Position numbers and translations under genes: made by a program | Shown here: piece after piece, positions 16,823 to 47,434 of the stretch | How the letters are laid out: each line of letters starts with the position of its first letter | Numbering within the stretch: the first letter of the stretch is position 1 | From: Negaprion brevirostris | Taxonomy: Eukaryota | Direction: 5' to 3' | Assembly (NCBI GenBank): GCA_030324005.1 | Contig: JARDVH010000059.1 | Coordinates: 38,031,182 to 38,095,181, forward strand | Length of the DNA stretch: 64,000 bases | Notes under the pieces: generated by a model | Databases searched by the model: none | The model's input: only the letters and a program-made list of their open reading frames with translations | What the model was told of the DNA's origin: nothing

Positions 16823-17205
16823 ATGCTAGGTAAAAAATCAAATCGATCCTCGAATTTTACCATTTATGAAAAGATTGATCTGTTAAAACTTGTGCGGCCT
16901 CACATCAAGGTCTTGGAGGTTCATAAGAATAATCAAGCCATAATTGTTGAAAAGAATCGTTGCTGGGAAACTATAGCACAGCAGTACAATGCTGTTGGAG
17001 TGGATCGCCCTCCTCGTGGTGCACAGGCTTTGCGAACACTATACAAACGCATTAAAGAAAGTGCCAAACAGGAGATAGCCAGAAGAGAACAACTGCATCC
17101 AGACTATAAAGGAAATGTCTCTGAGCCAACCAGAAGAATTCTAGAAATGATTCCTCACATTTTCCAACCACTTTTGAAGGTGATAGACCCTGACAACTTG
17201 CAAAG
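16823..17205 (+). CDS. FSBP: FSBP coding exon 1, Myb/SANT-like DNA-binding domain; in-frame upstream ATG at 16802; phase-2 donor AG|GTAAGG
   Basis: RSSNFTIYEKIDLLKLVRPH..IVEKNRCWE..YNAVGVDRPPR.AQ.LRTLYKRIKE..SEPTRRILEMIP closely matches recalled human FSBP; nested in RAD54B as in human. Confidence 0.93.
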
Positions 17206-18849
17206 GTAAGGCTATCACATTTTACTGATCATAATAAAATAGTTTTTAAAAATGCTCTTTATCTGAGGTTAGTGTTCAGAGCTCATTATCATTACAGCCA
17301 CTTCATCTATGTTTCTGTATATGAGCACATATGGCTGGAGTTTTGGGCAGGTGGCCAACACAAAAAAATTATTTACATTCTAATTTTGGACGTTGACTTC
17401 AGTTAGTCACATTAGTCTCTAACTGGGGGCAAGTTCTGTGCTCTTCATTGTGAATAATTGGCCACGCTGAACTTTGGGTAACATAGCAGTTCAAAAATCA
17501 GTCAACTGCTAACACTGAGCACTTCCTGAATTGGAGTAAAATAAGATAGCCATTAATTGATCTTCGCACCAAGTGTGGTAAGATGTGGAACTCATTATTA
17601 GGAATTTGGAAGTTAATGGGGTTAACCGTGAAGTTGAGATGAAAACAAAAGTAACAGATAACATGATTAGCAGGCGTGCAGAGGAATATTGAGAGTCAGT
17701 TTTCCCAGTAACAAGATTAGCAGGCATCTAGAGAAATTGAGGTACGAATTGCCGTATCATAGACTCACTGATTTTTGGTCAACAATGTTTCTATAAAACA
17801 ATAACTCCTAACAGCAAGGAATTTGGGAGATTGATAGCTGAATCCACAGGATGGGATATCAAAGCGGCTAAACAGTATGTCTACTGGCATCCTCAGTGGG
17901 AGGCAGGCTAGTTTTTCATCAACAGCCAGACAGGCTAAAATCTTCAGAGAGCCAGTTCCATCTCTGATCGGAGCCATTGAGGCCTGCTCCATCTAACATT
18001 TAGAGCCACGGCAAATTATAGATACTGTTGTCTAAAAGATGCAGTTTCGTACTTTTGCTGAACCAGCAAAAGGCATTTTCCAAGACTTAGTCATCTAAGC
18101 TGTATTGTGTGGTAGCTATAAACTAGATTTGACTTATTGTATTGTGGATGTTGTTTGGGAAAAGTGATGACTTAGTATGTTCAATGAATGTGGGTATATT
18201 TTGAGAATAAGAGGTAATTTCAGATTAAACAGTGTGTTTAAAACTTAAGTGTATTAATGACTGTAATGTAATCTTTCATGTTGTGCATTTTTCTTTTCTT
18301 CTACTTTAATAATTACTCTTTATTAATTGTTTACACAATGACTGGAGTGGTTCCTCCACTGGGTTGTACATTGTTCCACACCATTCAAAACAAATATACT
18401 CCACTAAGAATTCGTGTTGCAGGGTTTTTAGACATTCTCGCAAGTAACATCAGAGCAGTTGTTACTACCACATGGAACGGTTGACGCAGATAGCACAGAT
18501 GTATTTGAAGAAAGGCATGATATATAGTGGGAATAGAATTTAAAGAATAATTCAAGTGGGAAAGTCTGTGGAATATAAATGCTAGTGTAATGAACTTTTC
18601 ATGCATTGATCTTTCCGATATTTAAATGGAAAAATTATGGCAACGCACACTGTGAGACGTCACTAAAGCTGGTAATGAGGAAGAGCTGGGAGGTATCATT
18701 TACAAATGGAACTTAATATACTTATTCCACTGTATAGATGCAAAAGGTCTTTAGTTTAGAAAGGCATCTTGTGTCAATGCAGGTTTAGTGGACCAAAGGA
18801 CCTGTTCCTGTGTCGTACCGTTCTTTGTACTTCAGGAGATGTTACTGAG

Positions 18850-19700
18850 GGGCAACATGTATATGAGAAATGGAAGAGGGGGGTGCCAAAGGAGAATTCT
18901 TGGGAGGTAATGATGCTTGGGCAAAAAAGGAAGACATTGTAGGAGATGCTTTTGCTACAACTGGGTAGAAAACTGTAGTTCCTACTCGGCGTGGAAGAAA
19001 GGTGTTGAAGGAGGATTGCACAATCAACCGTGTCAAAAGCTGCAAGAGATGTCAAGAAGATCGTGAAGGATTGTGTATCACTGTCACATTCACAGGACAT
19101 TGGGGCTTTTTAGAGTTTTGGCTTGATTGAAAATGTTCACATGGAGTTGCTAGAAAGATAGGTACAGGTTACAAGGCATACAAAAACTTTGACGATGGGT
19201 GACAGTTTGTAAAGATAGAGGGGTCAAGGATGGGATGTTTTGGGGAGGGAGTGAGAGCAGTAGATTTATGAGTAAGGGTAAGTGAGGTCAGATGGAAGTT
19301 GAGAAGTGGTCAGTATCTAGTGGGTATGAGTAGAACAGGAGTTGGGTCTGTAGACAAAAATTAAGATACAAGGAGAAATGGAAGAGGAACTGAAGAATGA
19401 CATGCGTTTGGGGCTAGCGTAGGTGGAAACTTTGGGATAAGCATGTCTTAGGCAAAGAAAAGGTTGAAATGAAAATGGAAAACGCTAGAAAAACTTAGCA
19501 CGTCAAGGAGTAATTTTGGTGCAGTACGCAGATCTGATGGATCAGTCCAATCAGTCATCAGAAAAGGAAAGATGGATTTTGGCAGAGACAGCTCAACAAA
19601 TTATATCAGTCATGGTAATAGAGAAGTTCATGAACTTGCTGCATTTATTGGAGTGGAGGGGAAGGGAGTGGAGATTAGAGATGTTTAGTACTAGGGAAAA
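18850..19700 (-). mobile_element. Ancient L2-like LINE remnant
   Basis: LTSLAAFDTVDCAILLQHL resembles the RT motif LDLSAAFDTVDH; extent approximate. Confidence 0.5.
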
Positions 19701-19839
19701 GCTGGGGTTTTCTTTGCATTTCAAAATAACGCTGGACACTCTGATTTTGCTGAAGAAAACAGAGCCCAATGGCGCATGCCAGATCTGGCTATTTTGCTTA
19801 TAAACTCCTTCTTGGATCTGAGCGGGGAGTTTTTTTATT

Positions 19840-20690
19840 AATGTGTTCTTGCAATTTGAGCATAGCTGGCAAAGCCAGCATTTATTGCCCACCTCTAATG
19901 TTCCTGAGCAGGTAGTGGTGAGCTGCTTCTTGAATTGCTGCAGTTCATATGTTGCATGTATACCAGGAAGGGAATTCCGGGATTTTGACCCAGGGATGAT
20001 GAAGGAATGGCAATATTGTTCCAAGTCAAAATGGTTTGTGGTTCGGAGGGCAACTTGCAGATGCTGTAGTCCATATGCCTCTGCTGTTCTTGTTCATCAA
20101 GGTTACAGAGGTCATATATTTGGAAGGTGCTGCTGAAGGAGCTTTGCTGAGTTGCTGCAGTGCACCTTCAATATGATGTGCACTTCTGTCACCTTGTGCT
20201 AGTGGTGGAGGGTAGGAATGTTTAAGGGTTGAAAGGGCTGCTTTCTCCTAGATGTTGAGCTTCTGAATGTTGTTGAAGCTGCACTCATCCAAGCAAGCAG
20301 AGGATATTCCATCACACTCCTGATTTGTGCTTTGTAAATGGCAGAGGGGCTTGGAGGAATTAGTAGGTAAATTAGTTGATGCAGAATTCTCAGTTTCTGA
20401 CCTGTTTCTATAGTCACAATACTTTTATAGCTGGTCCAATTCTGATCAACGATAATCCTTACAATGTTGATGGTGGAGGATTCCGTGGTGGAAATGGCAT
20501 TGAATGTCCAAGTTCGATGGTTATAATCTCTCTTGATGGAGATGATGGTAACTACCTGATACTTGTGTAGTTAAACATTACTTGCTAGTTACCAGCCCGA
20601 GCCTGAAGGTTCAGGTCTTACTTCATGCTGGTATCGATAGCTTCAGTAGCTGAGCAGTTGGAAATAGTACTGAATGTAATCAATATTAGC
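19840..20690 (-). mobile_element. Old CR1/L2-like non-LTR element, 3' region
   Basis: GQKLRIL..SAIYKAQIRSVMEYPLLAWMSAASTT; same family as 7690 and 31415. Confidence 0.6.
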
Positions 20691-21306
20691 ATGGGTCCTG
20701 AGATCTGGCTAATGTGGATTCTGGGTGAGTTAGCCTTGAGGGTGCAAAAGCAAAGGGTGGGGTGGAGGTCAGGGGTTGGCACTGAGTTGCCATAGCAGCT
20801 ATAGAGGGCTGCATGTGTTGGCATGGAGGATGAGGGACCATAGTCAAGGAGCATGGGCTGGTGTGAGGGGCTTGGGGATTGATGGGGTGTGTGAAGTGAC
20901 GTGCATGTGCGTCTCTGTACATGCCACTGTAGCTTGCACAGACGCCAGAGCACTGAGGCAGGCTGCTTGTCGACCCAGGAGTGACACTTCCAAGTGGTGG
21001 ACAGTGGGCAGCGACACTGCAAACTATCCATGATGGTCATTTTACTTCTGGCAAAAAGTCTATTTGGGGCACAATCTTCCATCTAATAATACTTGTACTC
21101 CAAGAGAAGTTGATATTTGATAAGCTGAATAGCCACTATCATTTAGATTGTAAATCATATGGCAGTCATCACACAGCCTTGTCTGACCCTGACCAGAATT
21201 TTGAAAGGCACTGTTTGGTATCTCCCACTGAAGGCAGTTGCAGTCATTTCATCATGAACTGATGCAGGATTATGATGAAACTTCTTTGTGCTTCGAAGAT
21301 TTAAAT

Positions 21307-23386
21307 CAGTGATCTCCAAAGAGCGAATAGTTGATCCTGGAGTCTCAAAAAGCCAATTGTCGTTGGCTGCTGAACCACTACCGAAAATGCACAGGACCCC
21401 AGCTTCATGTGGTGATGAGCGAATCAGCTCACTGTTGAATCATGGGCCAATGCATGAACTAAGCTGAGGAATGGGGAAGTGAATTTCTTTTACAAATGCC
21501 AAAGGCAAGACCTTTTGTATTATTTGTCAACAGAGCATAGCTTTGGGTGAAAGAGATAATTTGGAATGGCATCACAAGACAATACATGCAAAATTTAAAT
21601 TTCCCTTCAAACAGCACCATTCAGACAAGGAAAGTTGGGGAGTTAAAAGGAATGTTGCAAACTCAACAAACACACTTTTCAAAATCTGGTTAAAGACAAG
21701 GCTGGCAAAAATACATCATTTCACATTAGCCATCTACTGGCAAAATGTAGGGCAAAGTTGTCAAGGAGGCAATGATGGGTTGCAGCTGACACCTTGTTCA
21801 AAGACTTTAAAAACAAAGATGAAATTATGACAGCCATCATATTGCCTCTTGGTGTTTTAACAGTAGCCAGAAGGGTGCAAATGTTGCCCAAGGATGTGTC
21901 TCAATAAATACACCAAAACTTATCAGGCTGTGAATGTTTTTCACTGCAGTTTGATGAGTCAATAAATATGGCCGATGCAACCCAGCTCATGGCATTCAAA
22001 GATGCAACAACAAAGGACTTCCTCACTCTTTTGCCACTCAGAGAGGACAAGAGGCAAGGATATCTACTGCGAATTTAGAAGCATGTGACTGAGAAGAACA
22101 TTCCGATCAAGAAATGGGTTTCAATCACTGACAGTCAATGCTGGGTGTGACTGCAGACACCTCCAATAAATGCAGCAAGTTCATAAACTTCTCTATTATC
22201 ATGACTGATTATAATCTGTTGAGCTGTCTTTACCAAAATCCACGTTTTCCTTTTATGACAGTCAATGCTGGGTGTTAATGCAGGCTTTGTTGCACTTTGC
22301 AGAAGTGATCCTAAGTTCCTCTCCTTTGTCAATTATCGTTGTGTTATCCACCAACAAGCGTTAGTGAGCAAGATTATTGACTTTCCAAGATTGTCAACTC
22401 TACAGAGCTCTGTAATGTCATTTATTCAAATTGTTACTTGATTAGCTTGATACCACTATGGTGAGCTAATCCTTCATGCAATGTGAGGTGGTTAGGTCGA
22501 GGAAAAGTCCTGTCGAGATTTTTGCTCACTGAAATTATCACCTTTCTTAAATCAAGAAATGAGGTGTACTGTAAGCTGTCAGGTAATAATACATGGTTCT
22601 AGACTTGGTGTTTCTTACAGACGTAAGTGCAAAATTGAAAGAACTGAACCATGAACTGCAGGGGAGGGATCTAGATTTGTCACATGATCAGTGCAATGAA
22701 TGTGATCAAGTTGAAACTGGGCCTATGGTCCTCCCAGTTAAAGAACAAAATTACTGAGTACTTCTAGAGACAATCCAACAACAGTTCATACAGAAAGGAC
22801 TCCACCCAGTCAAATTCTGTGACCACATCAACAAATTGGAAAAGGAATTCAACAGAAGATTTCAGGAGTTTGACAAGGTGGAACAAATCATTGTTTGTCT
22901 CAAATCCTTTTCTTCAAGTGGACGTAGGAGAATTGACAGCAAAATTTCAGCAAATGTTCAAACAAAGCAGTGGACTTAATGTAGAAATAATCAACGTGTA
23001 AAATGACGTAGAACTGAAAGCTTGGTGCAAGTACAAAGACTTTTGAGGATTTGTCAACACAGAAGTACTCTCTTCTGACATTGTGTGCACTTAAGGTGAA
23101 GATCTACTTTGATTCCACATCTCTAAGGTTGCTTTTTCCAGATGAAAATCATCAAGTCCAAGTATCACACTTGCCTCACAGATGCCCAGCTGATGAATTG
23201 TATGAGACTGATCTCAAATTTTACAGCACTCACAGTGCAAGCACAGGTCTCACATGAAGAATACATAAATGTTATGCTTAAGTACATTTGGGGGGGTTTT
23301 AGTAAAGTCACATTTGTAAGGGTAGGTCTCTTGCTGCATTTTAATTCTAAAAGTGATCTTGTACTTAAAAAGGTTGCAGGCTACTG
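21307..23386 (+). mobile_element. Fossil hAT (Buster/Charlie, GTF2IRD2/SPIN-like) DNA transposon in the FSBP intron
   Basis: Frameshifted motifs FCIICQQSIA..NLEWHHKTIH, FSLQFDES..DATQL, YRCVIHQQAL, VRWLGRGKVLSRF, FLTDV..KLKELNHELQG, MKIIKSKYHTCLTD; ends CAGTGATCTCCAA and revcomp CAGTAGCCTGCAA; flanks ATTTAAAT and ATT(T)TAGAT. Confidence 0.85.
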
Positions 23387-24191
23387 ATTTTAGATGTCCA
23401 CCAACAGAGCCTCTTGATTTACTGAGCCAAATGCTTTGGTCAAGTCAGTGAAAGTAATGAGAAGTTCCTGGTGTTATTCTCAACATTTTCAAACTATGTG
23501 TCTGGCAACAAAGGCCATGTCAAATGTTCCTATGTAAGGTCCAAAGCTGCACTATCTCTGGGATGATTTCCTCAGCCACAGGAAGTAGGTGATTCAGGAG
23601 AACACGTCTTGGGATTTTCCCCACTATGAACGAGAGAAGAAAAACCTCAAGTTTTCACAGTGTGATTTATCTCTCTTCTTGAAGATAGTTGCAATTGTCA
23701 CTTTCCTGAAATCAATGGTGGGAATTTCTTTTTCCTGCCAAATTCAGAGGATAAGTGCATGGAGTCTTGATGTGAGCAAAACCCAACCGGCTTTGATGAT
23801 CTCGGCAGCGATACCTTAGGGGCTGCAGGCTTTGTTGATTTTCATCATGTGAATGGAAGGAAAGGGAAGAAAAATAATATTAAATCATTGAATTTTGATG
23901 GGACTAGCACAGGGCTGGAAAAAGGGAGCTGAACTGCAACTAAATGCAGTAGATTTAAAGGGATAATGTAGAGTAGTAGTAGCAGACTGCACAACTTGAC
24001 ATTTTAGGAAATAGAGGCAGATTGAATAAGGTAAGCAGTTATTAATTCAATATTGCTGATGTTCATTGGCCAGCCTGCATGTTTTATTGTATTTTGGTCA
24101 CTTGGCATTCAAATGTAATTTTTAAAAATGTAATATTTCTTATGGCTTTGAATTTAATGCATCAATGTTATCTGTATAATCTTTCCTTCAG

Positions 24192-24771
24192 GCCTTGTGG
24201 AAGTTCACCTTCTGAACAAGAACAAGATTCCTGCGTGGAACAGCCTGCTAGCTTGTACCCACAGCCTGGAACCTCAGGCTACCAGTCCCATTCCAGTCAT
24301 GATTGGGTAACGCCAGAGTCAGAACCCGAACATGAAGAGAAACCTCCTCCGATATTAACTGTGCTATCACAGCCGAGCGAAAACTTGCAAGAACAGAATA
24401 AAACAGAGACCCAACAGGCCACTAATGGCTCTGTCTCACCCTTTTCATCTTCTGGGGCAAGAGTATCCTTAACACCATCTCCGAGGCCTGCAAGAAGGGA
24501 AGATGTTTTGTTCAGCCACCACCAGCACCACAGCGGTGCCCTGCACCATGTTGGCAGTCATGATAATGGAGAAATGAAATTAATGTCAGCAGAGGAACAT
24601 GAGATAATTATGGAAAATCAAAGAAAGTTTGGACTCTATCTTGACGAAAAAAGAGAGAGCCTGAAACGAAAGCAAGCTTTAGAGGAAGACTTGTTAAGGG
24701 CAAAAATCAGAGTAGAAGAATTAAAGGCAGCAAGACTGCAACAAGGCTTGCCAGCAACCCAGGAAGCCTAA
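24192..24771 (+). CDS. FSBP: FSBP terminal coding exon (Pro/Ser-rich linker plus coiled coil); spliced CDS from 16823 is 320 aa
   Basis: Acceptor CTTTCCTTCAG|G in phase 2, compatible with the 17205 donor (AG|G = Arg); EEHEIIMENQRKFGLYLDEKRESLKRKQALEEDLLRAKIRVEELKAARL matches the recalled FSBP C-terminus. Confidence 0.92.
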
Positions 24772-24792
24772 TATTTGTAAATATTTGTTTCA

Positions 24793-24798
24793 ATTAAA
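24793..24798 (+). terminator. Candidate proximal poly(A) signal (ATTAAA) for FSBP
   Basis: ATTAAA ~20 nt after the stop with GT-rich sequence downstream; motif only. Confidence 0.3.
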
Positions 24799-25434
24799 AT
24801 CAACTAAAAACAGTGTTTATGTGCTGTGGATTAATTCCAAAGATGACGTTAATGCCACAGTCTGCTATTGAACATTAAATTGTCATTGCAGTAGTTTTAA
24901 AATGTTTTGCCAGATTTTGGCTAAACTTAATAATTGTCCAAAAATGATTTCTATTTAAAAATGAAAATGCTTTTGAACTCACACGAGATGAACAACATTG
25001 TTAAAATATGTTTTATTCTAATCTGACCAAACCTCATGAACCTTAAGCCTTATCAAAAGTTAGGTTGCTTGGAAAATGAACTTGAGTAATTAGGTGAGTG
25101 TCGTATGCAATGTGAGTTTTGATCTTAGTTTTCAAGAACTTTAGACTGCAATTCTTGGAATTCTTTTTTTTCTCTAGTTTCATGTAGAATTTGTTTACTT
25201 GAACTTTCATGGAGAATTCGTTTACTTGAACAACTGAGGCAGAATAGTTACAAGTTAATAATGGTATAAATCAAAGCTTCCGAATGGGCAAATTCATAAA
25301 ATTAATCCAGGGCTTGTGAAAATAAGTCAGTGATGGATTTTGCTTATTGAAACTACAACCAATATTTATGGGACCATACTTACATGTTTGTCTCTCCTCC
25401 ATTATCGGAAGGATTTGAGATTTTTTTTAAAAAT

Positions 25435-25782
25435 TATTTCATGAGATGTAGCATCTCTGGCAAGACCAGCATTTGTTACCCATCCTAAATTGTACTTGAA
25501 TGGACAACCCTGTTGCTGTGATTCTAAAATCGCGTGTAGGCCAGACCAGGTAAGGATGGCTGAATTCCTTCCCTGAAAGACATTAGTGAACAAAATGGGT
25601 TTTTACAACAATCGTTGATTGTTTGTTTCATGGTCACCAGTACTAAGACTAGCTTTCAATTCCAGATTTTCAACAGTTGAATTTGAATTCCACCAACTGC
25701 CATGGTGAGACTTGAACCTATGTCCCCAAAGTATTTGTCTGGGCCTTTGGATTATTAATCCAGTTACATTACCACTGTCTCC
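25435..25782 (-). mobile_element. SacSINE1/DeuSINE-like SINE
   Basis: Shared core GTAGGCCAGACCAGGTAAGGATGG..AAGACATTAGTGAAC. Confidence 0.6.
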
Positions 25783-26149
25783 CTTTAGTCCGGTTGATGT
25801 GTTGAGTTTATTTGAGAGTCCAATGTCAAGTCTCAAAAATACAATAAAATGTATTTTGGCTCAATACACTTTGCTTTTGTCAATAATTGTTTATTTTCAG
25901 ACTCTGTACCCTTGCCTTTCACTTCACCACTCTTAACTTCAAAAACTGCTTTGTCTGCTGTGAACTGTCTATTTGCTGTCCTATGTCCAAGCTTGTCTTT
26001 TTATTAGGTGTTTCCTTCAATTTTTTTTTAAGCAGCTTTTCCGAACCTCAAGAGAAGATGTGCTGTTTGCCAGGGCTTTCTGCCAAAGTTAGTTGACTGA
26101 TCAGATGACCCTAGTCTCCTCTTGTTGCACAGCATGTTTCCAACTATTT

Positions 26150-27060
26150 ACATACCTGTGATTCCTCCCCAAAGCACTGAGACTATCCTCAACAGAGTTA
26201 CCCATGCTGTCCTCTGACTGTGGTGCATTTTTGGATTCTCACACTCCTTGACCTCTTTGCAGTGATTAACATGATTGATGTGGCTCTATTGCTTCTCTAT
26301 TGTGGTTTATTTCATGGCACTTTTGTAACAATCTTCCTAATACTGCTATGTATCCTAGCACAATCAGTGCATCTTTGTAATTACTTTTCATCTTCCCTCC
26401 TTTTACAGTCATAACTGGTGTATGTTAAAGTTCCATCCTTGCTCCTCTTTGCTTATCTATATTATTTTTTAATCAGTATTTTTAACTCCTTGACATCGCC
26501 AATGGCTAAAGACAAAGCTGGCAAAAAGACGTCTTTTAAGAACATAAGAAATAGGAGCAGGAGTAGGCCATCCAGCCCTTCGAGCCTGCCCCGCCATTCA
26601 ATAAGATNNNNNNNNNNNNNNNNNNNNNNNNNNNNNNNNNNNNNNNNNNNNNNNNNNNNNNNNNNNNNNNNNNNNNNNNNNNNNNNNNNNNNNNNNNNNN
26701 NNNNNNNGATAGGCGAGGGGATTAAGGGTTATGGGGAGAGGGCAGGAATGTGGAACTGAGCCACGACAGATCAGCCATGATCTTTTGAATGGCGGGGCAG
26801 GCTTGAAGGGCTAGATGGCCTACTCCTGCTCCTATTTCTTATGTTCTTATATTTCAGTATCTGATTCTCTATCCAGCCAGTAGCTACATCAGATTCAGCC
26901 CAATGTTTTGATATTTGATTTGAGCTGACCCCATAAATGCCACATCTTTGTTATCATATGATTACTTAGTCCTCGCTCTATAACATAACATAATATGCTT
27001 CTATCCCAACCTCATCTTTGGTAAAACTTGCTTATCCACCTCAGTCACACCAAACTCCAT
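26150..27060 (+). mobile_element. Ancient L2-like remnant interrupted by two young, oppositely oriented CR1 3' ends either side of a gap (26538-26607, 26708-26850)
   Basis: ILTLLDLFAVINMID resembles the L2 RT motif; (ATAAGAAC)-type CR1 tails nearly identical to 27829-27895 and 50755-50914. Confidence 0.5.
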
Positions 27061-27604
27061 TACACTGGAGCTCTGTGTGATCGCCTCTACAGGTTTTCCC
27101 ATGCAAACATATGGATAAGAGAAGACAGGCTGGCACACTGAACCTGTTCTGTCTAGCACCATTTAATTAATATTATCTTTATCTTTTCCAAACATTTGCA
27201 TGTCTTGCAATCTTCTAGGAGGGGCAAACAATGTAACCCAGTTTAGGGAAAATATTCAGGGTAAAAGGAACTCATCAAAACATGCTTGACAGAACTACAT
27301 TGCTGAATTGTAAAGTTATATTTTCAAGTTTAAAGAACATGAACATTAGAGCAGAATTAGGCTACTCAACACTTTGAGCCTGCTCTGTCATTCAACATGG
27401 TCATGGCTACCTCCACTTCCAAAGTTTTTGCTGTCAGTGTCTTGAGCTCCTCTGACATTTCTGGGTATGAATCTCTAGGTAATTAAAAAAAATAAATTAT
27501 TTAAAGTTTCAATTATGCCATAATTTCATCCTCACTTTTATTTGTAAACATTTGGACTGAAGGCTAAGGTGTCTGCTAGATTTGATAGCCTGAATCTTTG
27601 GTGT

Positions 27605-29217: not shown

Positions 29218-29317
29218 NNNNNNNNNNNNNNNNNNNNNNNNNNNNNNNNNNNNNNNNNNNNNNNNNNNNNNNNNNNNNNNNNNNNNNNNNNNNNNNNNNN
29301 NNNNNNNNNNNNNNNNN

Positions 29318-29495
29318 GCTTGGGCATGCTAAGTTGCCTCTTAATGTCAAAAGATGTGTAGGTTAGGTGGATGAGCAGTGGTAAATGCATGGGGAGATAG
29401 GGCGAGTGGGTGGACCTAGTTGAAATGTTTGTTCAGAGAGTCGGTGTGGATTTGAAGGGCCAAATGGCCTTCTGCATTGTAGGGATTCCATACGG
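29318..29495 (+). mobile_element. HE1-type SINE 3' half
   Basis: GGGCATGCTAAGTTGCC..GGGCCAAATGGCCTTCTGCATTGTAGGGATTC. Confidence 0.7.
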
Positions 29496-29919
29496 AACTG
29501 TCCTTGAGTTGAAAAGAGTGGATGATGGGCATTGCTGCTGATGCAGGTCGATTCCAGGAGTTGACTTGGCAAACAACGGATTCTTCAATTCAGATATTCT
29601 TTGGTTCGGTAGAAAGAGATTTCAGTTTTTTCCAGCTGCGACTTTTCTGTTGGCTGATAGACTTTCACAATCAGAGAGAGAGAATTTTGGATATTCCTGC
29701 AATAGGTGGCTATTTTTGTAGGGACCCTGCCTCAGTTACTGTATCTTCTTCAATGTGGGAAGGTTTATCTACTTTTCTCACAGCACACACAGACAGGCAT
29801 TGGGCAGCTCTCTCGGCTAGCTTTTAACCCCCTTTTTGTGTATTCAAACTGGATTCTAGACAATTATACCCAGAGTCTTTGGGTGGAATAGCTACTACGT
29901 TCCTTTGTCTTTACCAGAT

Positions 29920-31410: not shown

Positions 31411-31414
31411 TGAT

Positions 31415-33141: not shown

Positions 33142-34580
33142 AGATCAGTTAGGTCAGGAATCACGACTCTTGGGATTTTGTCATTGAGCTCTCATGACGG
33201 AGGTCAATGGACGATCCAAGGCAAGATTTTTTTTAAAATAAGTGATCTTTGTTCAGAATTCTGCTATGCCGTTCTTTAGCTGGATGCATGTTGTTTTGGG
33301 AAGATAATTTAATCTATGTATTTTTCTTTATCTGAAATGTTGCTTGTCACTCTCTTGTCCTAGCAAGTTCTCTGTCTTTCCTTGTTAACCTACCCAACTA
33401 CGATACAAATGCCAGTTACATGGTAAACCAACAAATAGGTAAACATAGCTGTTAAATGTTCCCTTAATCACAACTCTTCTGCCAAATCAGTAACATTGTA
33501 TCAGTGGCTATCGACTGGGAAAGCTCCACAAGTGTGAAATATATTGTTCCAGAATGTGATAATTGAATGTGTTTTGATCAAACAAATTCAGATCCAAGCT
33601 CCTTTTATTTGTTTTATCTTTTTTTTCCTCATGGCGCCTCTTAGGTTCTTAGTTCCTGTAGTTCCTCCTTCCTATCATACCCCTTCTCTCCCCTATCAGG
33701 TATGCTGCTACATTAATTCCTACTGCAACCCGTCAGTGTTCCTCTGTTCCTACTCTCTAGCCAAAATCATTGTAGTTTTTAACTAAGGAGGAGAAAGATT
33801 AGTAACTATTTGGGCTGGAAAGATGTGTGGCTGGCAGCGAGGTTCAGGTTAGGTATATAATCATAGAACCCTACAGTGCAGAAAGAGGCCCTTCGGCCCA
33901 TTGTGTCTGCACCGGACACAATCCCACCCAGGCCCTACCCCGTATCCCTACATATTATACCCACTAATCCCCTCTAACCTACGCATCCCTGGATACTAAG
34001 GGGCAATTTCTTAGCATGGCCAATCAACCTAACGCGCACATCTTTGGACTGTGGGAGGAAACCAGAGCACCTGGAGGAAACCCACGCAGACACGAGGAGA
34101 ATGTGCAAACTCNNNNNNNNNNNNNNNNNNNNNNNNNNNNNNNNNNNNNNNNNNNNNNNNNNNNNNNNNNNNNNNNNNNNNNNNNNNNNNNNNNNNNNNN
34201 NNNNNNNNNNNNAGACAGTGACCCGAGCCGGGAATCGAACCCAGGACCCTGGAGCTGTGAAGCAGCAGTGCTAACCACTGTGCTACCATGCCGCCCCAAT
34301 AATCAATGTTGTAGATTGGTAGTATTTTTCTCTGAGATCAGTTAGGTCAGGAATCACGACTCTTGGGATTTTGTCATTGAACTATCATGAAGGAGGTCAA
34401 TGGATGATCCAAGGCAAGGTTTTTTTCTAAAAAAAGTGATCTTTGTTCAGAATTATGCTATGCCGTTCTTTAGCTGGATGCATGTTGTTTTGCGAAGATA
34501 ATTTAATCTATGTATTTTTCTTTATCTGAAATGTTGCTTGTCATTCTCTTGTCCTAGCAAGTTCTCTGTCTTTCCTTGTT
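33142..34580. repeat. ~245-bp direct repeat pair (33142-33386 and 34335-34580)
   Basis: AGATCAGTTAGGTCAGGAATCACGACTCTTGGG..CTCTGTCTTTCCTTGTT occurs twice with about 10 differences. Confidence 0.9.
33860..34296 (-). mobile_element. Young HE1-type SINE spanning a gap
   Basis: Well-preserved reverse copy with A/B-box head; closely similar to 61140-61615. Confidence 0.85.
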
Positions 34581-35327
34581 GCCCTTTTCTCCTCCTTCTA
34601 AACTTTCACACCCAAATTCTAATGCTTATTGCTTTGATTGAATAGCCTTGTTTGTCTCTAATTCATTTGCGTCTTCTGGTGCGTGGCTTCCTGTGTGCAT
34701 TATTCTGTCTTGTGTTTTTATTTGTGTCATGTTTATTTTATAAGCTTTTTATGCTAATTAGGCATTGTTAACACTGTAATGAGCATATCCAATTTCAGAA
34801 TATCACAGTGCAAACTTCTAAACTTTGTAGTACGGGATGCAATAGGGATTGTTCCAACCTGTTGCTGAAATAGGAGAGGGGAACTAATTAAATCACAGGA
34901 TGAGAGGATCATAAGAATTTTGCTGATCTCTCAATTGGAATAAGATTCCAATCAATCATGAACTCTTGCTCATTATAAACACTGAAATAAGCTTGCCTGT
35001 GTTCATATTGACACAGTATTGTAGTCTGGCCAGATTCTTTTCAAAACCATTGTCGGAGCGTTGTCTGGGGCTAGGTCTACAATACTTCAAAATTTCCCAT
35101 CTGTCAGTTGAAAGTAGTCATGTCTTCCAAAACCCAAAAGAAGTAGATTGCTTCAGCATTTTCCATTTCCAGTTTATTCTTGCCAAGCACTGATTTGTCT
35201 TCCTTCTGCGGAAATGAAAGTTATTTTGTTTGGTTAGTACAGTTACTCAAGTGACTGGGCTATGTGACTGTAAACAGGAAAGAGGAGTTCCTGCTGACAA
35301 CAGGAGGAGGAGCACTGTTTCTAAGAT

Positions 35328-37366: not shown

Positions 37367-37607
37367 ANNNNNNNNNNNNNNNNNNNNNNNNNNNNNNNNN
37401 NNNNNNNNNNNNNNNNNNNNNNNNNNNNNNNNNNNNNNNNNNNNNNNNNNNNNNNNNNNNNNNNNNNTATGCATTTAATTGGTAAATGAAATAATGTCGT
37501 AGATGTCCTATCTTTCAGCCAATTTCTTTCTTAGTTCCAAGATTTATCCTGAATTCCGACAGCTTTGTGTTTCACTAAGTAGCCATTCTGACAGAACTTT
37601 ATGAACT

Positions 37608-37682
37608 GCTGTTTGAAAGTCTGAGTAGCTGATATTTGTTACAGTAGCTGTTTGAAAGTCTAAGTAGCTGATATTTGTTACA
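37608..37682. repeat. Tandem duplication, 36-bp unit x2 (period 39)
   Basis: GCTGTTTGAAAGTCT(G/A)AGTAGCTGATATTTGTTACA twice, one mismatch. Confidence 0.9.
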
Positions 37683-39089
37683 TTTTTACGTTTAAGGCTA
37701 GCTGATTTATTGCGTGCTGAGTCAGCACCCAATCTGGTAAACAGTGCATTCCCTCCATCAAAGTAAACAATAGCAAGAACCAGGAATTGAGCAGGGAACC
37801 TTGAGAGTATACATCAGATTACTCGAATGCACCATTGTGTGATTCTCCTCATCATTCATAAACATGTTGAATATACACTGCATTACTTCTGTTAATTGTA
37901 GTAAGAAATTCCAATAATCTAATAAAGAGAATAATACATTTATCATAAATATTTCCTTCTTGGGAGTACTGCGTGCACTGTGCTTAGCACACATCATTGC
38001 AGCTGATGGTACATGCAGGTATCCGGATATAAAAACAGAAAATCTCAGCAGATCTGACAGCATCTATGGAGAAAGGATAGAGCCAATGTTTTGAGTCTGG
38101 ATGACCCTTTGTCAGGTATCTGAGTTGCCTTTCTTTTGGTCACAGTTTTGCAAATTGAGTTATGAAGTCAGCAGTTGCAGCCTAGCTGATATTGAATTGG
38201 CCATATTGACATTTTAGCCAATCTAGGTTGCAACTTTTAGCATTGTTCTTCAACATAGTTTAGGTCCTACAGATGGGATTTACCATCAACTGTATCACTG
38301 ATTTGTCCACCATTTGTGGCTGAAGAAGCTGCACTGGGGGAGAAGTTTGTTTTGACTCCAGTTGAGCTATTCATCATGTGATCCATTGCATCCTTCACTT
38401 GAGCTGTTATTACACACACAACTACTCTTGGACAAATTAAAGTCCTTGTCTAAGATAACAAAGATATTCTAGGCAAGTTCTGGCCACAAGGGTGTTTCAG
38501 ATTAACATCCTTTTCTGTGTCACATTCACTGTGATTGTGTGTAGAAAAGGGGACATCTTGCCTAAGTCCAAGTTCACTGCACATCCAAACATCTCTTATT
38601 GTAGGATTTGTAGAAGAATTTCCTTCCTTATTTCACTTCTGATTAAGTTATTAATTAGTTCAAGACACATTTGTTTAGCCATTGTTTTCTGATTCTGGGG
38701 CTGTAAGTATCTTTTGTGCATTAACATTTGAGCCTTTAAAGATATTGAGTTTTTTTTTTCCTCTGACTGAACTCTTATTGAATAATATCCTACAAATCAA
38801 TTTGCTTGGGCGCTGAGTTATTTATTTTTGAAGTCAGCTTTTTAAAAAAATTATATAGTTGGTTTCTCTGCATTTCCAAATCCAGATCATGTTGAATCTG
38901 CTTTTCTATGATTGCTATTCCTAAAGTACTGTGATTAGGAAAATGGAGTAAACCATACAGGTGGAGATGATAACGTATTGGGAAGGGACTCCGGTTTTGA
39001 AGCCCACATGATGATGGAGGGACAGAACAATGCTGGAGCCAAGATTTTCAAATTTTTATTTTATTTCCAGTCAAAATTTAAGGGAAATA

Positions 39090-39625
39090 AATTAGCATTG
39101 CTGCCTCATGGTGCCAAGGACCTGGGTTCAATTCCAGCCTTGGGTGACTTGGTGTATGGATTTTGTATGTTCTCCCTGTGTCTATGTGGGCTTCCTCTGG
39201 TTTCCTCCCACAGTCCAAAGATGTACAGACTAGGTGAACTGGCCATGCTAAATTGTGCCTTAGACCAGGGATATGTAGGTTAGGTGGGTTAGCTTCAGTA
39301 AATGCGTGGAGTTCCAGGGAAAAGCAGAGGGGAGGGCCTGGGTGAAATGTTCTTTTGGAGAGTTGGTGCAGATCTAATGGTTGGATGGCTTTTTTCTGCA
39401 TTGTAGGGATTCTGCAGTTCTATGTTGACCTTGGTGACTTTTAACCATAAAATCACTACAATGCAGAAGGAGGCCATTTGGCCTTTCAAGTCTGTACTGA
39501 CACGCCGACTGAGCATCTTCTCCACCCCCATCCTATCTCTGCAACCCCACATATTTACCCTGCTAATCCCCCTAACCTACACATCTTGGGATGTTAAGGG
39601 ACAATTTAGCAAGGCTAATCCACCT
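39090..39625. mobile_element. Tail-to-tail HE1-type SINE pair (+ 39090-39420; - 39448-39625)
   Basis: TTAGCATTGCTGCCTCATGGTGCCAAGGACCTGGGTTCAATTCC head on +; reverse 3' half follows after ~25 nt. Confidence 0.75.
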
Positions 39626-42600
39626 TCAAAACATTGCTGCCAATATCCTACCTTGCACGAGTTGCTCTCCCATCATAGCTATCCTTGTTGGTTGTGAACC
39701 TTGGTCCTTCAATGTCTAAAATTTAAAATTCATATCCATGTTTAAATTTCAACATGGTTTTCCTCCATCTTCCTTCTGCCTTTCAAGTTCTGGTCCCTCA
39801 AAAACTCCATTCTGCTACTCTGGTTTCTTGTGCACTGCCATTCCTTTGCCCCACCATTAGGAGCTGCACCTTAATTTGTCAAGAGTCGTCCCTCAGGAAT
39901 TGTCTACCTAAACATCTCTGTACCTCCCTCAGCTCCTTTAAAATCAACCTTNNNNNNNNNNNNNNNNNNNNNNNNNNNNNNNNNNNNNNNNNNNNNNNNN
40001 NNNNNNNNNNNNNNNNNNNNNNNNNNNNNNNNNNNGCTGATATTTTATTGTTGCAATATTAATTGGGTGCAGGGTGACATAGTCCTCCAAAGGATTCTGA
40101 AATAGAGTGGAAGGCCCTCAGAACAGCCTTTTGTGTAAATAAATGAGACTATGATCAGCTGATTGCAACAGAGCCCTTTGTCTACGTGGCCTATTTACCT
40201 TCTTTAATCCTGGATTTATATTACGTCACTGCCACCCGTGGGCTGTCTCTATGCTACTGGCCGTGCTGTAATCTAACAGGTGCCATTAGTGCCTATGGTA
40301 ACATGGCAACTCATCACAGGAGGTCCCTTTTATCGCTTATGCTGCCAGCACAAATTATAACCAGTCATGGGTCGTCAACTATTTTATTTTCATTGCTGAC
40401 CTGGGCAGTGTGTCCTCTAACATCAGATTTATGATCAGAAAACTGAAAGGTCAACTGCAACATTTAAATGGCAATGAATGTACGGGTTGTCTTTGTGTTT
40501 CGCTACTGCTGCGAAGTCCATACTGTAGGCGGTATGAACTGGCTGGATTGCAGACCATCAGGGGCTGAACCATGTGGAAAGGAGAGTTTGAGATTCTGTT
40601 TTCGTCACTTTAAGGGAAAATCCTCGCCCCTTTTTTCATGTTAAAACAGAAATTAATTTCTCCATTTCAAACATTCTTGTGCTGATCAAGCAATACATAT
40701 ATATAAAAATTAACCTAGCAGCAAACGTAAACTTTAAATACTTATGGACCCATCTTTACGGAAAATACGCTGAATTAAGAGTGTTAAGTGTAAAATAGAT
40801 TTTATTTGCTTTCTTCCTTACCATTTGTCTTGCCGTGGGTAATTATCATGCATGTAAGAATATTTTATTGACTCTGAATTTCACATGTTGGCAGTAAAAT
40901 GAAAAGGTTTAAAGGTTAGTAAATCAGATCCCTTTGCGTGCTGCATTCCGTAACGATAATGTTGCAGTTAAAGTATGTTCTTGTGGAATTTCTCACTAAT
41001 TAACTGACAAGCATGGCAGTATGAAGTGGTGATCCTTTCTTTGTAGCACTCAATGGTTTTCTGCAGGGAATTATCCTGGCTGGATTTCTGAAGGGCATGT
41101 GTGCAGAATAGCAATGACATGCTTTGTAAATACAGTAGCACTGTGTAGATGGTGTATATCGCCGAGATGCAAATTCATTATCCTGCCGTTTAAAGCATTC
41201 AATGTTTGTGCCTGTACTAAATAAAGGAAAGAAATTGATTTACAGAGCCCGGTGTGCAAATTTTATGCATGTCTCTTTGGTTGTACGTAATAAGAATGTG
41301 GATTCCTTTGATCATTATTTCCATTGTTTGAGGCATACAGGTGAAGTTGTGTGACTATTACTGTATTTGAGTTCTGTTTATTACTGTTAAAGGTTGGTGC
41401 ATGATGTCACTTGAGAGTTTTATGCTCGGGCAGTGCTATTCTGCTGCTGCCATACAAATGCTGCAGTCTTCGGGAGCCAGCGCATACTTTTTCAAGGTTT
41501 TTTTCATGTTTTTAAACAGTGTTTTTCCAACTTGATAACGTGTCTTCCTTGCTTTTTTTTATCCCCCTTTCATGTTCGAGGCTTGCCTCCAATTACAACC
41601 GTACCATCAGAGCCACTGTCGTTGCATAAATGGCACGGTTGATGCCAGAGAAAATCACACCCTGCCTCTGAAAGCGAAATACCAATGGCTGTAAAGAGAT
41701 AAATATTATTCATTGGTAGTGGACCGATGTTAGCCCGGATAGGCTGAGAGTTCATTCTGCCTCTTCCGCTGCTAATAACAATAATCAGTAGCCTAAATGA
41801 TGATGCTGAATATGATTTTGTAGCAACTATGTTTGTCTAATTCTGATGTTTCTGAATCTGCTCCGCATATAAGCAGGGTAATTTCTGAAGCTACAGCTAG
41901 CTCACNNNNNNNNNNNNNNNNNNNNNNNNNNNNNNNNNNNNNNNNNNGTACAAGGCGAAGCAGTCATATCTGGTTACTGCACGTAAACAAAAAACAAAAG
42001 TGATATGGGCTTCCCTGTTCGTCCCATTGATAAATGCACTGGTTAGTGTGGTGCTGAGCTGGTAAATGCTGAGTTTAATTTTCTATGCTCGGCTGACAAA
42101 ATTCAACCAAAATTCGGCGTTGAAATGACTTTAACATCCATGAGTTGAGTGGGGTGAAATTTGTCTCGATTGTGATTGCAGCGACCACTGCTGGGAAGTG
42201 TGTGCATGGGGTGAAAACACAATTAGGCTCAACTACATTTGCCCTAAGTCTCATGTGAAGAGCACATGGGCAAGGTGCTTTAAGACAGTGGTACGTGTGT
42301 AAACATATCTGAGCTTGATTCAATACCTTCAGGAAAGCAATGGATCATAATTAGTGGGGAAGGAGTTGCAGTTCTCTAAACTTAAATTTCTCTTCTGAAT
42401 ATTCGGTTGTAAAATTTTCTGTTGTGAACCTAGTACAGCTTTAAAGATCTTCTTTTATACAATTTTCCTTGTGAACTTTAAACTCCAGTTTCATGTTTTG
42501 TAGTGTACTAATGATAGTGTAGGAATCTCTTCTCCCCCCCCCTCCCCCATGCACAGCCTGGTTCCTGTCTCTGTGGTTGGTAGGAACCAGGGGTGAAGAA

Positions 42601-43222
42601 CAGAGGTCAGTGCCATTTGTATAGAAAACACGTGATCGCAGGGTTTGATGTGCAAGAGAGAAGTGACAAAACTCTTTAAAATTGATCTTGTTTTGCAACA
42701 TGTTTGGTAGTAGCCAAGAGTTAACAATGAGTTTTAAAAGTAGGAAAGGGATACTGCAGTTTAAGTGTATAGATTATTTCAGCATATAAACTTTCAAAAT
42801 TTGTTCTGTAGCTACACACATTTCAGAGCAGCTAAGTTTATAGGAAATAAGTTTATACTTAGTTGCAGATGTTTAGAATAATGGCCATTGACAGCTTGCC
42901 ATTATACACTTAACAGCTTCAATGGATTAGCTGGGCGTTTCTTACACAGTCATTGAGGGATTAGTCTGACCTTCCTTGACCCCTGGTTTAGCATTATGCA
43001 AGACTCAGGGTTTTATACTACACAATAGAGACATTCAGCACCTCATTACTCTGAATATTCAAGCTGAATGGGCCCTTTTGCACATCATTACCTAAGAAAG
43101 CAGGTTTTGGGTGTGTTTCTGAAGTGGGGGCTGGCCTTTGGAGGTAGTCTGATTTAAAAGAGCAAGTCAGGGCTCTAGATTATTCAGTGTAAAGTTTAGT
43201 TGCTGAACAGTTCAGTTACACC

Positions 43223-43911
43223 ATGGAATCCACAAGAAAAAAACAGAAGGAACTTACCTTATCTGAGAAGATTCAAGTTCTCGAATTGCTTCAGAGGCAA
43301 AAGATCTCCCAGATGGAACTGGCAAAGCGTTTTGGTGTTACACAGCCTGTCATCTCCAGGCTAATCAAGAACAAGGAAAAAGTCTTGATGGAGTGGCACA
43401 ATAACAGCAATCCAGATCGTAAACGTAAAAGGGAAGGAAGGGATAGTGATGTGGATACAGCCCTCTTACAGTGGTTCCAGATTGCCAGAGCACAACATGT
43501 ACTTGTCTCAGATGAAGTCTTGGCTGCAAAGGCCAAAGGCCTGGCGGATGCTATGCAGATCAGGAATTTTGTTCCAACTGTTGGCTGGATCAACAGGTGG
43601 AAGGCTCGGCACGGTGCCTTTTTGCAACAAGTACATGGGGAAACTGATGGCAGAGGTCAGTCATTGGGCAGTACATCACAAGAGGTTGTGCCACCAGAAG
43701 GAATGACTGAAGAGGAATTTCATCAGTATGTGGAGCAAGCTGCTATTAAGGTATGTGTTTGGGACATGACTGATCAGGAACCAGGAAACACCATAAAAGC
43801 AATTACAAAGTCAGAAGCTATTGACGTTGAGGAAGAGAAAATGATGCCGGCCTTTAAGATGGCAAGAGGAAGTAACGGCCAACTAACACCTTCATCGAAC
43901 CAGTATAACAT
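43223..43911 (+). CDS. Exon 1 of a predicted chimeric gene: pogo/Tigger (CENP-B/TIGD-type) HTH_psq-like plus Tc5-type HTH domains, no DDE domain
   Basis: Intact 230-codon ORF with strong Kozak ACCATGG; LTLSEKIQVLELL..SQMELAKRFGVTQPVISRLIKNKEK, RKRKR, VDTALLQWF..R, LAAKAKGLA, F.PTVGWINRWKARHG; donor AT|GTAAGT (phase 2). Confidence 0.85.
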
Positions 43912-45250
43912 GTAAGTTTACCACTTTTCAATTTTTATTGACTACTTTTTAAATAATTTACTAGAAATTTAAGGAAAAGGTTATTCTGACTCTGCTAAAT
44001 TCTAGTTTTTTTTGTTCTCCTTGGTTAAACAGTTCACCATCTCTCTTCTGTACTGCTGATATTTATGTTTAAAGATGCTGTGTAGCAGCTTGGCTCAATT
44101 GGTTGCTGTAAGAACATTGTAGATTCAAGGACTATTTTAGATTTGAACATCTTAACCTGAATTGACACTCAATGCAGTACCCTCACTGTATTGCATGGTT
44201 GAAGATGCCATCTTCTGAACAAGCCAGTACATCAAGGCGTGTGTGTCTTCTCAAATAGATATTAGAGATCTAATGGCATTATTGTAAGAGTCTGGAAACT
44301 CTCCGCGGGGGGGGGGGGGGGGGGGGCGGGNNNNNNNNNNNNNNNNNNNNNNNNNNNNNNNNNNNNNNNNNNNNNNNNNNNNNNNNNNNNNNNNNNNNNN
44401 NNNNNNNNNNNNNNNNNNNNNNNNNNNNNNNNNNNNNNNNNNNNNNNNNNNNNNNNNNNNNNNNNNNNNNNNNNNNNNNNNNNNNNNNNNNNNNNNNNNN
44501 NNNNNNNNNNNNNNNNNNNNNNNNNNNNNNNNNNNNNNNNNNNNNNNNNNNNNNNNNNNNNNNNNNNNNNNNNNNNNNNNNNNNNNNNNNNNNNNNNNNN
44601 NNNNNNNNNNNNNNNNNNNNNNNNNNNNNNNNNNNNNNNNNNNNNNNNNNNNNNNNNNNNNNNNNNNNNNNNNNNNNNNNNNNNNNNNNNNNNNNNNNNN
44701 NNNNNNNNNNNNNNNNNNNNNNNNNNNNNNNNNNNNNNNNNNNNNNNNNNNNNNNNNNNNNNNNNNNNNNNNNNNNNNNNNNNNNNNNNNNNNNNNNNNN
44801 NNNNNNNNTGCCTGGAGTACTGGTCCCCAGTGTGCTGCCAGATACAGACATCCTGCCTCCTAAACTGGCCCTCCTCTGCCTCTGAGGACTTGAAGGTTGA
44901 CTGGAAAATTCCTGTCTGCCTGCTGCATGCAGATGAGTACTCCTGCTGGACCTTTATCCCTACTCTGCAAAAATGGCCCAGAGGTGGGATGTAATTGGGG
45001 AACTGGCCAGTGGGGCTATTTTTAACTCCAGCCTTCCTCCGATTCCTCTGAGCCTTCCTCAGCTCTGGCAGAAGGTGAAAATCCAATCCCAATAGTTGAA
45101 CCCTGAATTGTTCTTTCTCTTGGTTCAAGGGCACTAATGCCAGTTATAATATCACATGCATAAGAAATGCTACAAGCATGAGTTAAATTGACTAATTCTG
45201 ATAAGAAGAATGTTGGCCAAGCTACTAGGTGAACTCCATTACATCAAGTA

Positions 45251-45402
45251 CATTAACAAGCCTCACAACACCAGATTAAACAGGTTTATTTGGTAGCACA
45301 AGCTTTTGGAGCACTGCCCCTTCATTAGGTGAATACCAAATAAACTTGGACTTTAACCTGATGTTGTAAGAGTACTGCGCCTACCCCAGTCCATATCATG
45401 GC
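45251..45402. mobile_element. Palindromic Penelope-type short insertion with 12-bp target-site duplication
   Basis: CTCACAACACCAGATTAAA..TTTAACCTGATGTTGTAAG; TTACATCAAGTA at 45239-45250 and 45403-45414. Confidence 0.7.
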
Positions 45403-46878
45403 TTACATCAAGTAGTGCAACACCCAAGGAAACAAGGCCTCAGTACCCCACTTAAAGGATGGCACTGAACAACAATGGATTACAACATTTACAACTCTCT
45501 CGTTGCTGCATTGGACTGTTAGCAAGTGTCGTGCACTTAAGTCAGGAAGACAAATGAACACAATCGTCTACATCAGAGACAAGAGTGTGTTCTGTACTTT
45601 CCTGTTCTAAAATTTGGCCTCAATTATTTCTCATTCCCATCTCTCCTGAAGATGTAATAGTGTTGCTCAGGACTCTTTCCATGGGTGTCAGTCACCCTTG
45701 GTTATGTTTCCCAAGTGAGCCTTAACTGCAAATATTTGTTGGCTTCTTGACCACTGTTACAATCTCCATAGAAACAGATAACTTTTAAAGAGAAGTTTGA
45801 ACTTCCAGTTGATTTGAAGTCAAGGTTTCACAATTTAAAAAATACTTTTTACCAAATGCTTTTGTAAACAATTCATTCTTCAAATTCCAGAAAAGAGATT
45901 CCCCATTTTTAACTTTTAGCATAACTAACGATCTCATTCTATGGCTATGCAGTATCCCCAGACTGGTCTAAAATTATTCTCAGCTCTTGATGACTGGGTT
46001 GCTTCCTTTTTACTTTCCCAAACAAGTAATTTCCAATCACAGAACTGACTTTAACTGTGAAGGTTGCGCTGGAGATTCTTTCATNNNNNNNNNNAAATCC
46101 TTACAAATTCAATCTCTTCAATCTGAAGCACATGTTTCCACCTGCATTCAGCATGGTGAACCTTAGAGTCAGCATTTTTTCTGTATCATGTGCAGGACTC
46201 ACTGCTGACATGTGATATTCATGGATTTGTTGAGAAGCCTGTAGCCTGATCTCAAAAATGGCTTCCTCTGTCCTCTTCCCCATTGGTAACATGAAACATA
46301 ACTTTGTATGTAGATAGAAATGCTAATTAGCTATCTTTTAATCAACTTTTTTTCATCTTACAAATAAATGAATGGTTAGTTTACAGCACAACTGCTTACA
46401 TCCAATATCTTTTGGGACTTTGGGAGATTCAGAGTCTACTCATGCTACACTCCGACTACTGCCATTGTCTCTAAGCAGAAATATCTTGTACCACCTCCTC
46501 AGTAAAACCATCCTAGCTATACTTTATAAACTTCAGAATGGTAACACCACAAAGTCGAATCCAATTTGCTCATGCATAGACTTGCACTTCTAACAGAGGT
46601 CATCATTTGATGATCAGGAGTGTGAGTCCCTGTGCTTATTTTCCCTCCAGTCATTGAAGTTAGTTGTAGACCTTAGCTAAATGAATTCAGCCAAAATTGG
46701 GGAATTGAACCTCCCTGTACTGTATGACTCCGTTAATTGCTGCTAAAATGTTATTGTCATCAGGAAAACCATTTTGTCCACCAATAATCAAAAACATATG
46801 TATTTTTGGAACACAATTTATTTGCAATAAATTATTGAGAAATTGTGGAACTAATATATTTATTCAACTTTTATACAG

Positions 46879-47434
46879 ACCACATGGAAGAAATTCTGCT
46901 TCAAGAAAGGATATTTGCATGGAAATGCCTAGCAGTTCTTATTCACAGCCTGGAACTTCAGGCTACCAGTCCTATTCATTCCCCAGGTGGGTAAGCCCAG
47001 AGGTAGGACGAAAGCGAAGTGAAGGAAAGTCTCTGTTAACTGCTCAGCCACAGCTGAGGAACAGCTTTGAGGGACTGGACAAGGCAGAGACTCATCTTCT
47101 TACAGATGTGTCTTTTTCTCCACCTTGTGCTAGATTACCCTCCACATCATCCCCTAGACCTCTTACAAGGGATGACCTTTTATTTCTGCAGCAGCACCAG
47201 GCAAGCATCCCACGCTATGGGACCAGGAATGAGAATGACATGCCAGCAACATCCTCAGAGGAACAAGAGCTTATCCTGGAAAACCAAAGAAAATTTGGAT
47301 TGTATCTTGATGAGAAAAGGGAAAGCCTTAAAAGATTACATGCGCTGGAGGAAGAACTGCTCAGGGCAAAAATCGAAGTTGAACAGTTAAAAGCATTACG
47401 ACTACGAGAATTGTCAGTGCTTAAGGACCCCTAA
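46879..47434 (+). CDS. Exon 2 of the predicted chimeric gene: duplicated FSBP-like terminal exon; spliced product 414 aa
   Basis: Acceptor CTTTTATACAG|A in phase 2 at the position homologous to the FSBP acceptor; shares QPGTSGYQS, SPRP..R.D.LF and ENQRKFGLYLDEKRESLKR..ALEE.LLRAKI.VE.LKA.RL with 24192-24771; no stops or frameshifts. Confidence 0.87.

Follow-up and report, generated by a model that had tools for sequence, protein, structure and literature searches.

The fibrinogen silencer-binding protein FSBP has been described as a homologue of Apontic, and the expression of Shh, cyclin E, E2f1, and Rb has been reported to be under its regulation in mammalian cells (PMC5622130, PMC7394757). 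TIGD3 is reported to be a gene derived from pogoR transposases (PMC7386202), and the motifs bound in DNA by human domains of the CENP-B/Tigger type are long (PMC11601247). Fusions of host genes with transposases have been surveyed in tetrapods, where they mostly reflect acceptor capture of a downstream transposase (10.1101/2020.05.07.082677). Here, we describe two genes, designated A and B, in a stretch of 64,000 nucleotides from the shark Negaprion brevirostris (contig JARDVH010000059.1, positions 38,031,182 to 38,095,181 of the forward strand; hereafter the window). With moderate confidence, we favor the explanation that gene A is orthologous to FSBP, whereas gene B represents an intact shark-ray chimera of a pogo-type DNA-binding exon and a duplicate of the FSBP last exon, likely encoding a transcription factor that takes the FSBP helix to TIGD3-type sites.

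Gene structures and domain contents

Gene A consists of two coding exons on the + strand, 16823-17205 and 24192-24771, encoding 320 amino acids (aa) from an ATG at 16823, with a further in-frame ATG upstream at 16805, to a stop at 24769-24771. The first coding exon encodes a Myb/SANT-like DNA-binding domain (PF13873, Myb_DNA-bind_5; E 6.6e-19), is 95 to 98% identical to named shark FSBP, and matches one place in the genome. The GT-AG intron (17206-24191) is in phase 2, with its donor AAG/GTAAGG at 17206 and its acceptor at 24191, and the junction is consistent with named FSBP proteins. The last exon, assigned by its sequence match to FSBP and by the AlphaFold model of an orthologue, encodes a disordered linker and a terminal helix. 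Within it lies a conserved tail core of 52 residues (24592-24747), identical at 48 to 52 positions in eight elasmobranch FSBPs and at 32 to 38 positions in five bony vertebrates, and FSBP orthologues of gene A range from lungfish to tuatara. Judged by its Myb_DNA-bind_5 head and conserved terminal helix, gene A is the shark FSBP orthologue. A preliminary description of this DNA had left it unnamed; since FSBP is already known, only gene B is new. In the lungfish Protopterus annectens (P0036 and P0043), two divergent FSBP paralogues were observed, with a Myb head on both.

The same description had likened the head of gene A to the partner proteins of PIF/Harbinger transposons, and the Harbinger-derived MSANTD1-4 and NAIF1 proteins do carry a Myb/SANT-like trihelix head, as gene A does. 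A term search of the main text of the paper defining the Harbinger-derived MSANTD genes (PMC9392472) found zero occurrences of FSBP, which elsewhere is described as an Apontic homologue, so the Harbinger link amounts to a likeness of domain class and gives no ground for a Harbinger origin. A fold search of FSBP returned weak matches (Zeste, Sap1, and GT-1), none of them below E 0.001.

Gene B also has two coding exons on the + strand, 43223-43911 and 46879-47434, and encodes 414 aa from an ATG at 43223 to a stop at 47432-47434. Its first coding exon encodes a pogo-derived head with CENP-B_N at aa 5-56 (Pfam E 9.6e-9) and HTH_Tnp_Tc5 at aa 75-131 (E 4.4e-12) and without a DDE domain; this head matches the CENP-B structure 1HLV at E 2.7e-10 by sequence and at E 1.1e-4 by fold. 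It is followed by an acidic/helical motif at aa 151-185 (43673-43777), identical at 29 to 32 of 35 positions in nine orthologues. The GT-AG intron (43912-46878; phase 2, donor CAT/GTAAGT at 43912, acceptor at 46878) agrees with orthologue proteins and with five skate proteins from Logan that cross the junction. A shorter first exon with a donor at 43751 was rejected, as this donor is in phase 0 and would break the frame. The last exon is a duplicate of the FSBP last exon, 49% identical to exon 2 of gene A over its whole length (profile E 1.3e-35), and contains the counterpart of the 52-residue tail core (47258-47413), a predicted long helix identical at 48 to 52 positions in nine orthologues.

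Pfam scans found DDE_1 in neither of two gene B orthologues and in both of two TIGD3 proteins, and gave no Myb match in gene B or in its orthologues; nor did the surroundings of gene B yield any remnant of a Myb domain. On the last exons of genes A and B, no Pfam family scored below E 0.9, and all Atlas matches for gene B were under 0.9. Both two-exon genes thus occur with the limits given in the preliminary description, and its layout of a DNA-binding exon, a phase-2 intron, and a tail exon is borne out, as are the different DNA-binding heads on homologous tails and the pogo derivation of the second head. The common intron phase, which had been taken as a sign of a module, carries no independent evidence, because the acceptor was duplicated along with the exon and imposes the phase. 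With a transposase-derived domain in frame with a host exon, gene B is, by its sequence, a host-transposase fusion formed by head replacement.

Conservation of gene B and of the common tail

Conserved orthologues of gene B occur in 11 named elasmobranchs, comprising six sharks (Chiloscyllium plagiosum, Chiloscyllium punctatum, Scyliorhinus canicula, Scyliorhinus torazame, Stegostoma, and Heterodontus) and five rays and skates (Amblyraja, Leucoraja, Narcine, Hemitrygon, with a shortened model, and Pristis, within a merged RAD54B model), where the products are recorded as "uncharacterized," "FSBP-like," or "TIGD6-like." Conservation of the protein peaks in the head and the terminal helix: compared with gene B of the window, the skate protein is identical at 118/131 positions of the head, 30/35 of the motif at aa 151-185, 80/126 of the linker, and 48/52 of the tail, and the electric ray protein at 122/131, 84/126, and 49/52 positions of head, linker, and tail, respectively. 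In Heterodontus, genes A and B lie together on a single contig of 47 kb. Word-limited protein searches turned up no protein of the gene B architecture from holocephalans or bony vertebrates, which is weak evidence of absence. A profile of the two last exons matched 20 protein clusters among 1.84 billion representatives, one with a pogo head (gene B), seven with a Myb domain, and 12 without a Pfam family; 18 of these clusters were scanned with Pfam (6 Myb, 12 none), and the remaining two are shark FSBP and gene B itself.

The skate cluster includes seven unnamed proteins from Logan: five cross the gene B junction on contigs of 1.3 to 1.8 kb, and two have one of their ends at the intron; we infer that those crossing the junction represent spliced transcripts. 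When two sequencing runs from relatives, guessed to be RNA, were aligned to the window, repeats dominated and no contig spanned either intron, while coverage by short contigs extended to portions of exon 2 of FSBP and exon 1 of gene B and to the sequence past the gene B stop as far as 48214.

Gene B exons might instead be alternative exons of RAD54B, part of a read-through product, or an annotation artefact. The sawfish model Pristis pectinata XP_051878587.1 (P0009) fuses RAD54B, the FSBP tail, and gene B into a "RAD54B" protein of 1614 aa, in which the parts follow the order of the window (RAD54B start, FSBP tail, gene B, and the rest of RAD54B), and "RAD54 homolog B" is the name given to one cluster of FSBP-like proteins in the Atlas. 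Yet gene B possesses a conserved start of its own as well as an in-frame stop, a stand-alone product is annotated in 10 other species, and in the skate contigs the protein terminates at the matching position. This explanation is very improbable, and the merged sawfish model is likely an automated annotation error. As its orthologues attest, gene B is a real, elasmobranch-conserved gene.

An annotated gene B isoform of Heterodontus (P0054) is without the tail, as it exits the last exon before its end, and GT and AG sites occur at the matching place of the window (~46985-46995). If true, such a tail-less isoform could serve as a competitor.

The tail matches exactly two places in the genome, namely, genes A and B. 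It had been called a near-invariant coiled coil; strong constraint within each gene is evident, but between the paralogues the core is identical at only 40 of 52 positions (77%), including one identical run of 19 residues, and its heptads are imperfect. Among the 40 shared codons, 18 differ silently, which rules out recent gene conversion between the tails and indicates that their likeness is held by selection; both tails thus appear to have been kept close to one sequence. AlphaFold predicts a single long helix following a disordered linker in both proteins, at aa 356-411 in a gene B orthologue (pLDDT 80-93 across most of its length) and at aa 260-318 in an FSBP orthologue. The overall pTM values are low (0.24 and 0.37), so only the local structure is usable. 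The properties of this predicted helix would suit association with itself, contact with a third protein, or the two combined.

Such a helix raises the tentative possibility, already voiced in the preliminary description, that proteins A and B form an obligate or preferred heterodimer through their tails, bringing a Myb head and a pogo head together, or that gene B titrates FSBP off its sites. The 19-residue run is identical in both proteins despite silent codon differences, each tail is predicted to form one helix of ~56-59 residues, and in the best register B has a leucine in place of a lysine of A at a core position and a glutamate in place of an arginine of A at a flanking position, which would ease pairing. 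However, an identical surface is equally expected from binding of a third protein or from self-pairing, the heptad register is crudely assigned, and the same glutamate occurs in some bony-vertebrate FSBPs, which have no gene B. Conversely, gene B could act independently of FSBP, as a homodimer on its own sites, with a tail that merely substitutes for the C-terminal helical part of the transposase. TIGD3 has ~40 further residues after the motif kept by gene B, all absent from B, and the B-specific tail residues are fixed across nine orthologues. Independent tails would be expected to drift apart, yet these kept their common core residues while the linkers fell to about 40% identity, and a dimerization role for the TIGD3 end would be an analogy with CENP-B; we regard independence as unlikely.

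Origins of the pogo head and of the duplicated exon

The closest named relatives of the gene B head are mammalian TIGD3 proteins, at 49 to 53% identity and, in the first domain, with helix-turn-helix stretches that are almost the same, and gene B is in turn the best match to TIGD3 in the genome (E 1.1e-32). Elsewhere in this genome, a full-length but decayed transposase of pogoR/TIGD3-like type, interrupted by stops and frameshifts (L037:4614-6040; G000:C157), is 63.6% identical to gene B over 368 nt. A DNA search with this copy matched only itself and gene B, and no multicopy donor family of the head was found, both counts being lower bounds. Around gene B exon 1 and around the decayed copy, searches for terminal inverted repeats (TIRs) gave only low-complexity or single 15-of-18/20 matches. 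With neither TIRs nor a multicopy family found, the earlier suggestion that the target sites might derive from pogo TIRs is left without support.

The motif at aa 151-185 aligns with the decayed copy and with aa 359-435 of TIGD3, whose DDE domain ends at 361, suggestive of an internal deletion of the catalytic core. Although each alignment is weak, the motif is likely a piece of the transposase from after the DDE domain.

The head could also come from a domesticated TIGD3-like host gene rather than a mobile element, making gene B a rearranged TIGD3 co-orthologue. This would agree with the identity to mammalian TIGD3, which reaches 53% over 128 aa and is the best match in the genome, and with the failure to find a multicopy donor. 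Against it, Gao et al. date the recruitment of TIGD3 to lobe-finned vertebrates, and the chondrichthyan rows observed in their supplement 5 fall in the JRK, POGZ, TIGD5, and TIGD7 sheets (PMC7386202); moreover, the genome holds several other pogoR-like heads that the tree does not separate from B and TIGD3. We consider such an origin quite unlikely.

Other pogo-type loci were also observed in this genome. A second intact pogoR-type gene (L004:1495-2439; G000:C163), with CENP-B_N as well as HTH_Tnp_Tc5 but without DDE, has 315 codons from its ATG and is 43% identical to the gene B head; it is possibly another domesticated DNA-binding-only gene. A short pogoR-type head split by an assembly gap (L008 and L041; G000:C154) is ~50% identical to the second domain of gene B. 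At 1.7 Mb from the window, L009 (G000:C59) holds the almost complete frame of a JRK-like pogo transposase, which stops or shifts interrupt.

As for the tail, last-exon trees group elasmobranch genes A and B together against bony-vertebrate FSBP (100/100) and place sharks and rays within the gene B clade (100/100), indicating that the duplication likely postdates the divergence from bony vertebrates and predates that of sharks from rays. Sharks and rays separated roughly 270-300 million years ago. Between the noncoding flanks of the two genes, likeness does not exceed that of shuffled sequences (17, 8, and 34 of 100).

Proposed role, genomic setting, and known systems

Under our favored explanation, the FSBP last exon, or the whole gene, would have been duplicated in tandem within RAD54B before sharks and rays diverged. 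A pogoR transposase of the TIGD3-like group may then have provided the new first coding exon, with the catalytic core lost by internal deletion and a phase-2 donor gained. By analogy with CENP-B, gene B would bind TIGD3-type sites via its two helix-turn-helix units and carry the FSBP interaction helix to them. The terminal helix is a putative protein-interaction surface, serving self-association, a shared cofactor, or both, and would couple proteins A and B where they are co-expressed; cross-talk between them would require that the helix engages in pairing or in competition for a partner.

Several findings weigh against this explanation. The best heptad register places lysines at core a positions, one in gene B and two in gene A, and conserved hydrophobic residues also lie outside the a/d stripe; with so imperfect a register, a two-chain zipper is not the only form that the helix could take. 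The profile alignment of the aa 151-185 motif to the region after the DDE domain is weak (probability 2%, E 0.023, 0/60 column shuffles), 8 of 12 non-independent comparisons with TIGD3-type proteins beat nearly all shuffles and 4 did not, and the score of the DNA-level alignment was reached by 17/300 shuffles. In the head tree, gene B, TIGD3, and four other shark copies emerge from a single fork. The last-exon tree is without an outgroup and its long branches meet at the root, and the age of gene B is bracketed only loosely, with no holocephalan sequence seen.

A bolder extension, possible but rather doubtful at present, is a lineage-specific, two-headed transcription complex of sharks and rays: FSBP would pair via the helix with its paralogue that bears the transposon head, linking Myb-type and TIGD3-type sites or switching FSBP off, driven from within the RAD54B unit.

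The 5' part of RAD54B lies on the + strand of the window. Its first coding exon (13067-13195; 43 codons, phase-0 donor) is 70% identical to the N terminus of ray RAD54B, and the next mapped coding exon (63176-63445) is 60% identical to ray RAD54B aa 769-863. The latter is in phase 1 with its acceptor at 63176 and in phase 0 with an alternative acceptor at 63193, meaning that either an unmapped exon lies between the two mapped ones or acceptor 63193 is used. Alignment and splice-site enumeration gave no convincing match to an intermediate RAD54B exon within 13196-63175; the expected exon may sit in an N gap of this interval. Thus, of the earlier claim that genes A and B occupy the same ~50-kb interval on the RAD54B strand, the strand and the position between two RAD54B exons hold, but a single intron is not established, as the exon phases differ. 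Upstream of the RAD54B start, a CpG-rich stretch at 12860-12920 contains a GCGCATGCGC palindrome and CCGG-type motifs, which we take to resemble NRF1 and ETS sites, and is likely the RAD54B promoter. Elsewhere in the window, a local duplication of ~250 nt (33142-33391 and 34335-34585) shows 92-96% identity, and positions 192-917 contain broken reverse transcriptase/RNase H-like frames that by eye resemble a retroelement of the long terminal repeat type.

Gene B is not described in the literature searched, a set to which subscription journals and bioRxiv supplements did not belong, and a term search of 10.1101/2024.11.11.622123 returned nothing relevant to it in the text covered; it is apparently undescribed so far. 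As a conserved transposase capture in cartilaginous fishes, it shows the reverse layout, with the host DNA-binding exon exchanged and the parent gene adjoining. As a natural domain swap, it marks the uncharacterized FSBP terminal helix, for which Pfam has no family, as a functional unit that is portable, and this bears on human FSBP too.

Among known systems, FSBP has the last exon and terminal helix in common with gene B but carries a Myb domain that gene B lacks. The head, a tandem of CENP-B_N with HTH_Tnp_Tc5, is that of TIGD3 and of the pogoR-derived TIGD4, TIGD6, and CENP-B. However, the 12 domesticated genes listed by Gao et al. all retain DDE (PMC7386202), whereas gene B has none and ends in a host exon; it is therefore not a member of the TIGD3 family. 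Nor does it resemble a mobile pogo element, with TIRs, TA target duplication, and multiple copies. Gene B is most comparable to host-transposase fusions such as KRABINER, SETMAR, and POGK, in which transposase DNA-binding and host domains lie on separate exons, the fusion is conserved, and the parent gene persists, all of which apply here. It differs from KRABINER-type fusions in that the transposase part, which splices through a donor, makes up the first coding exon and swaps the DNA-binding domain on a duplicated host exon.

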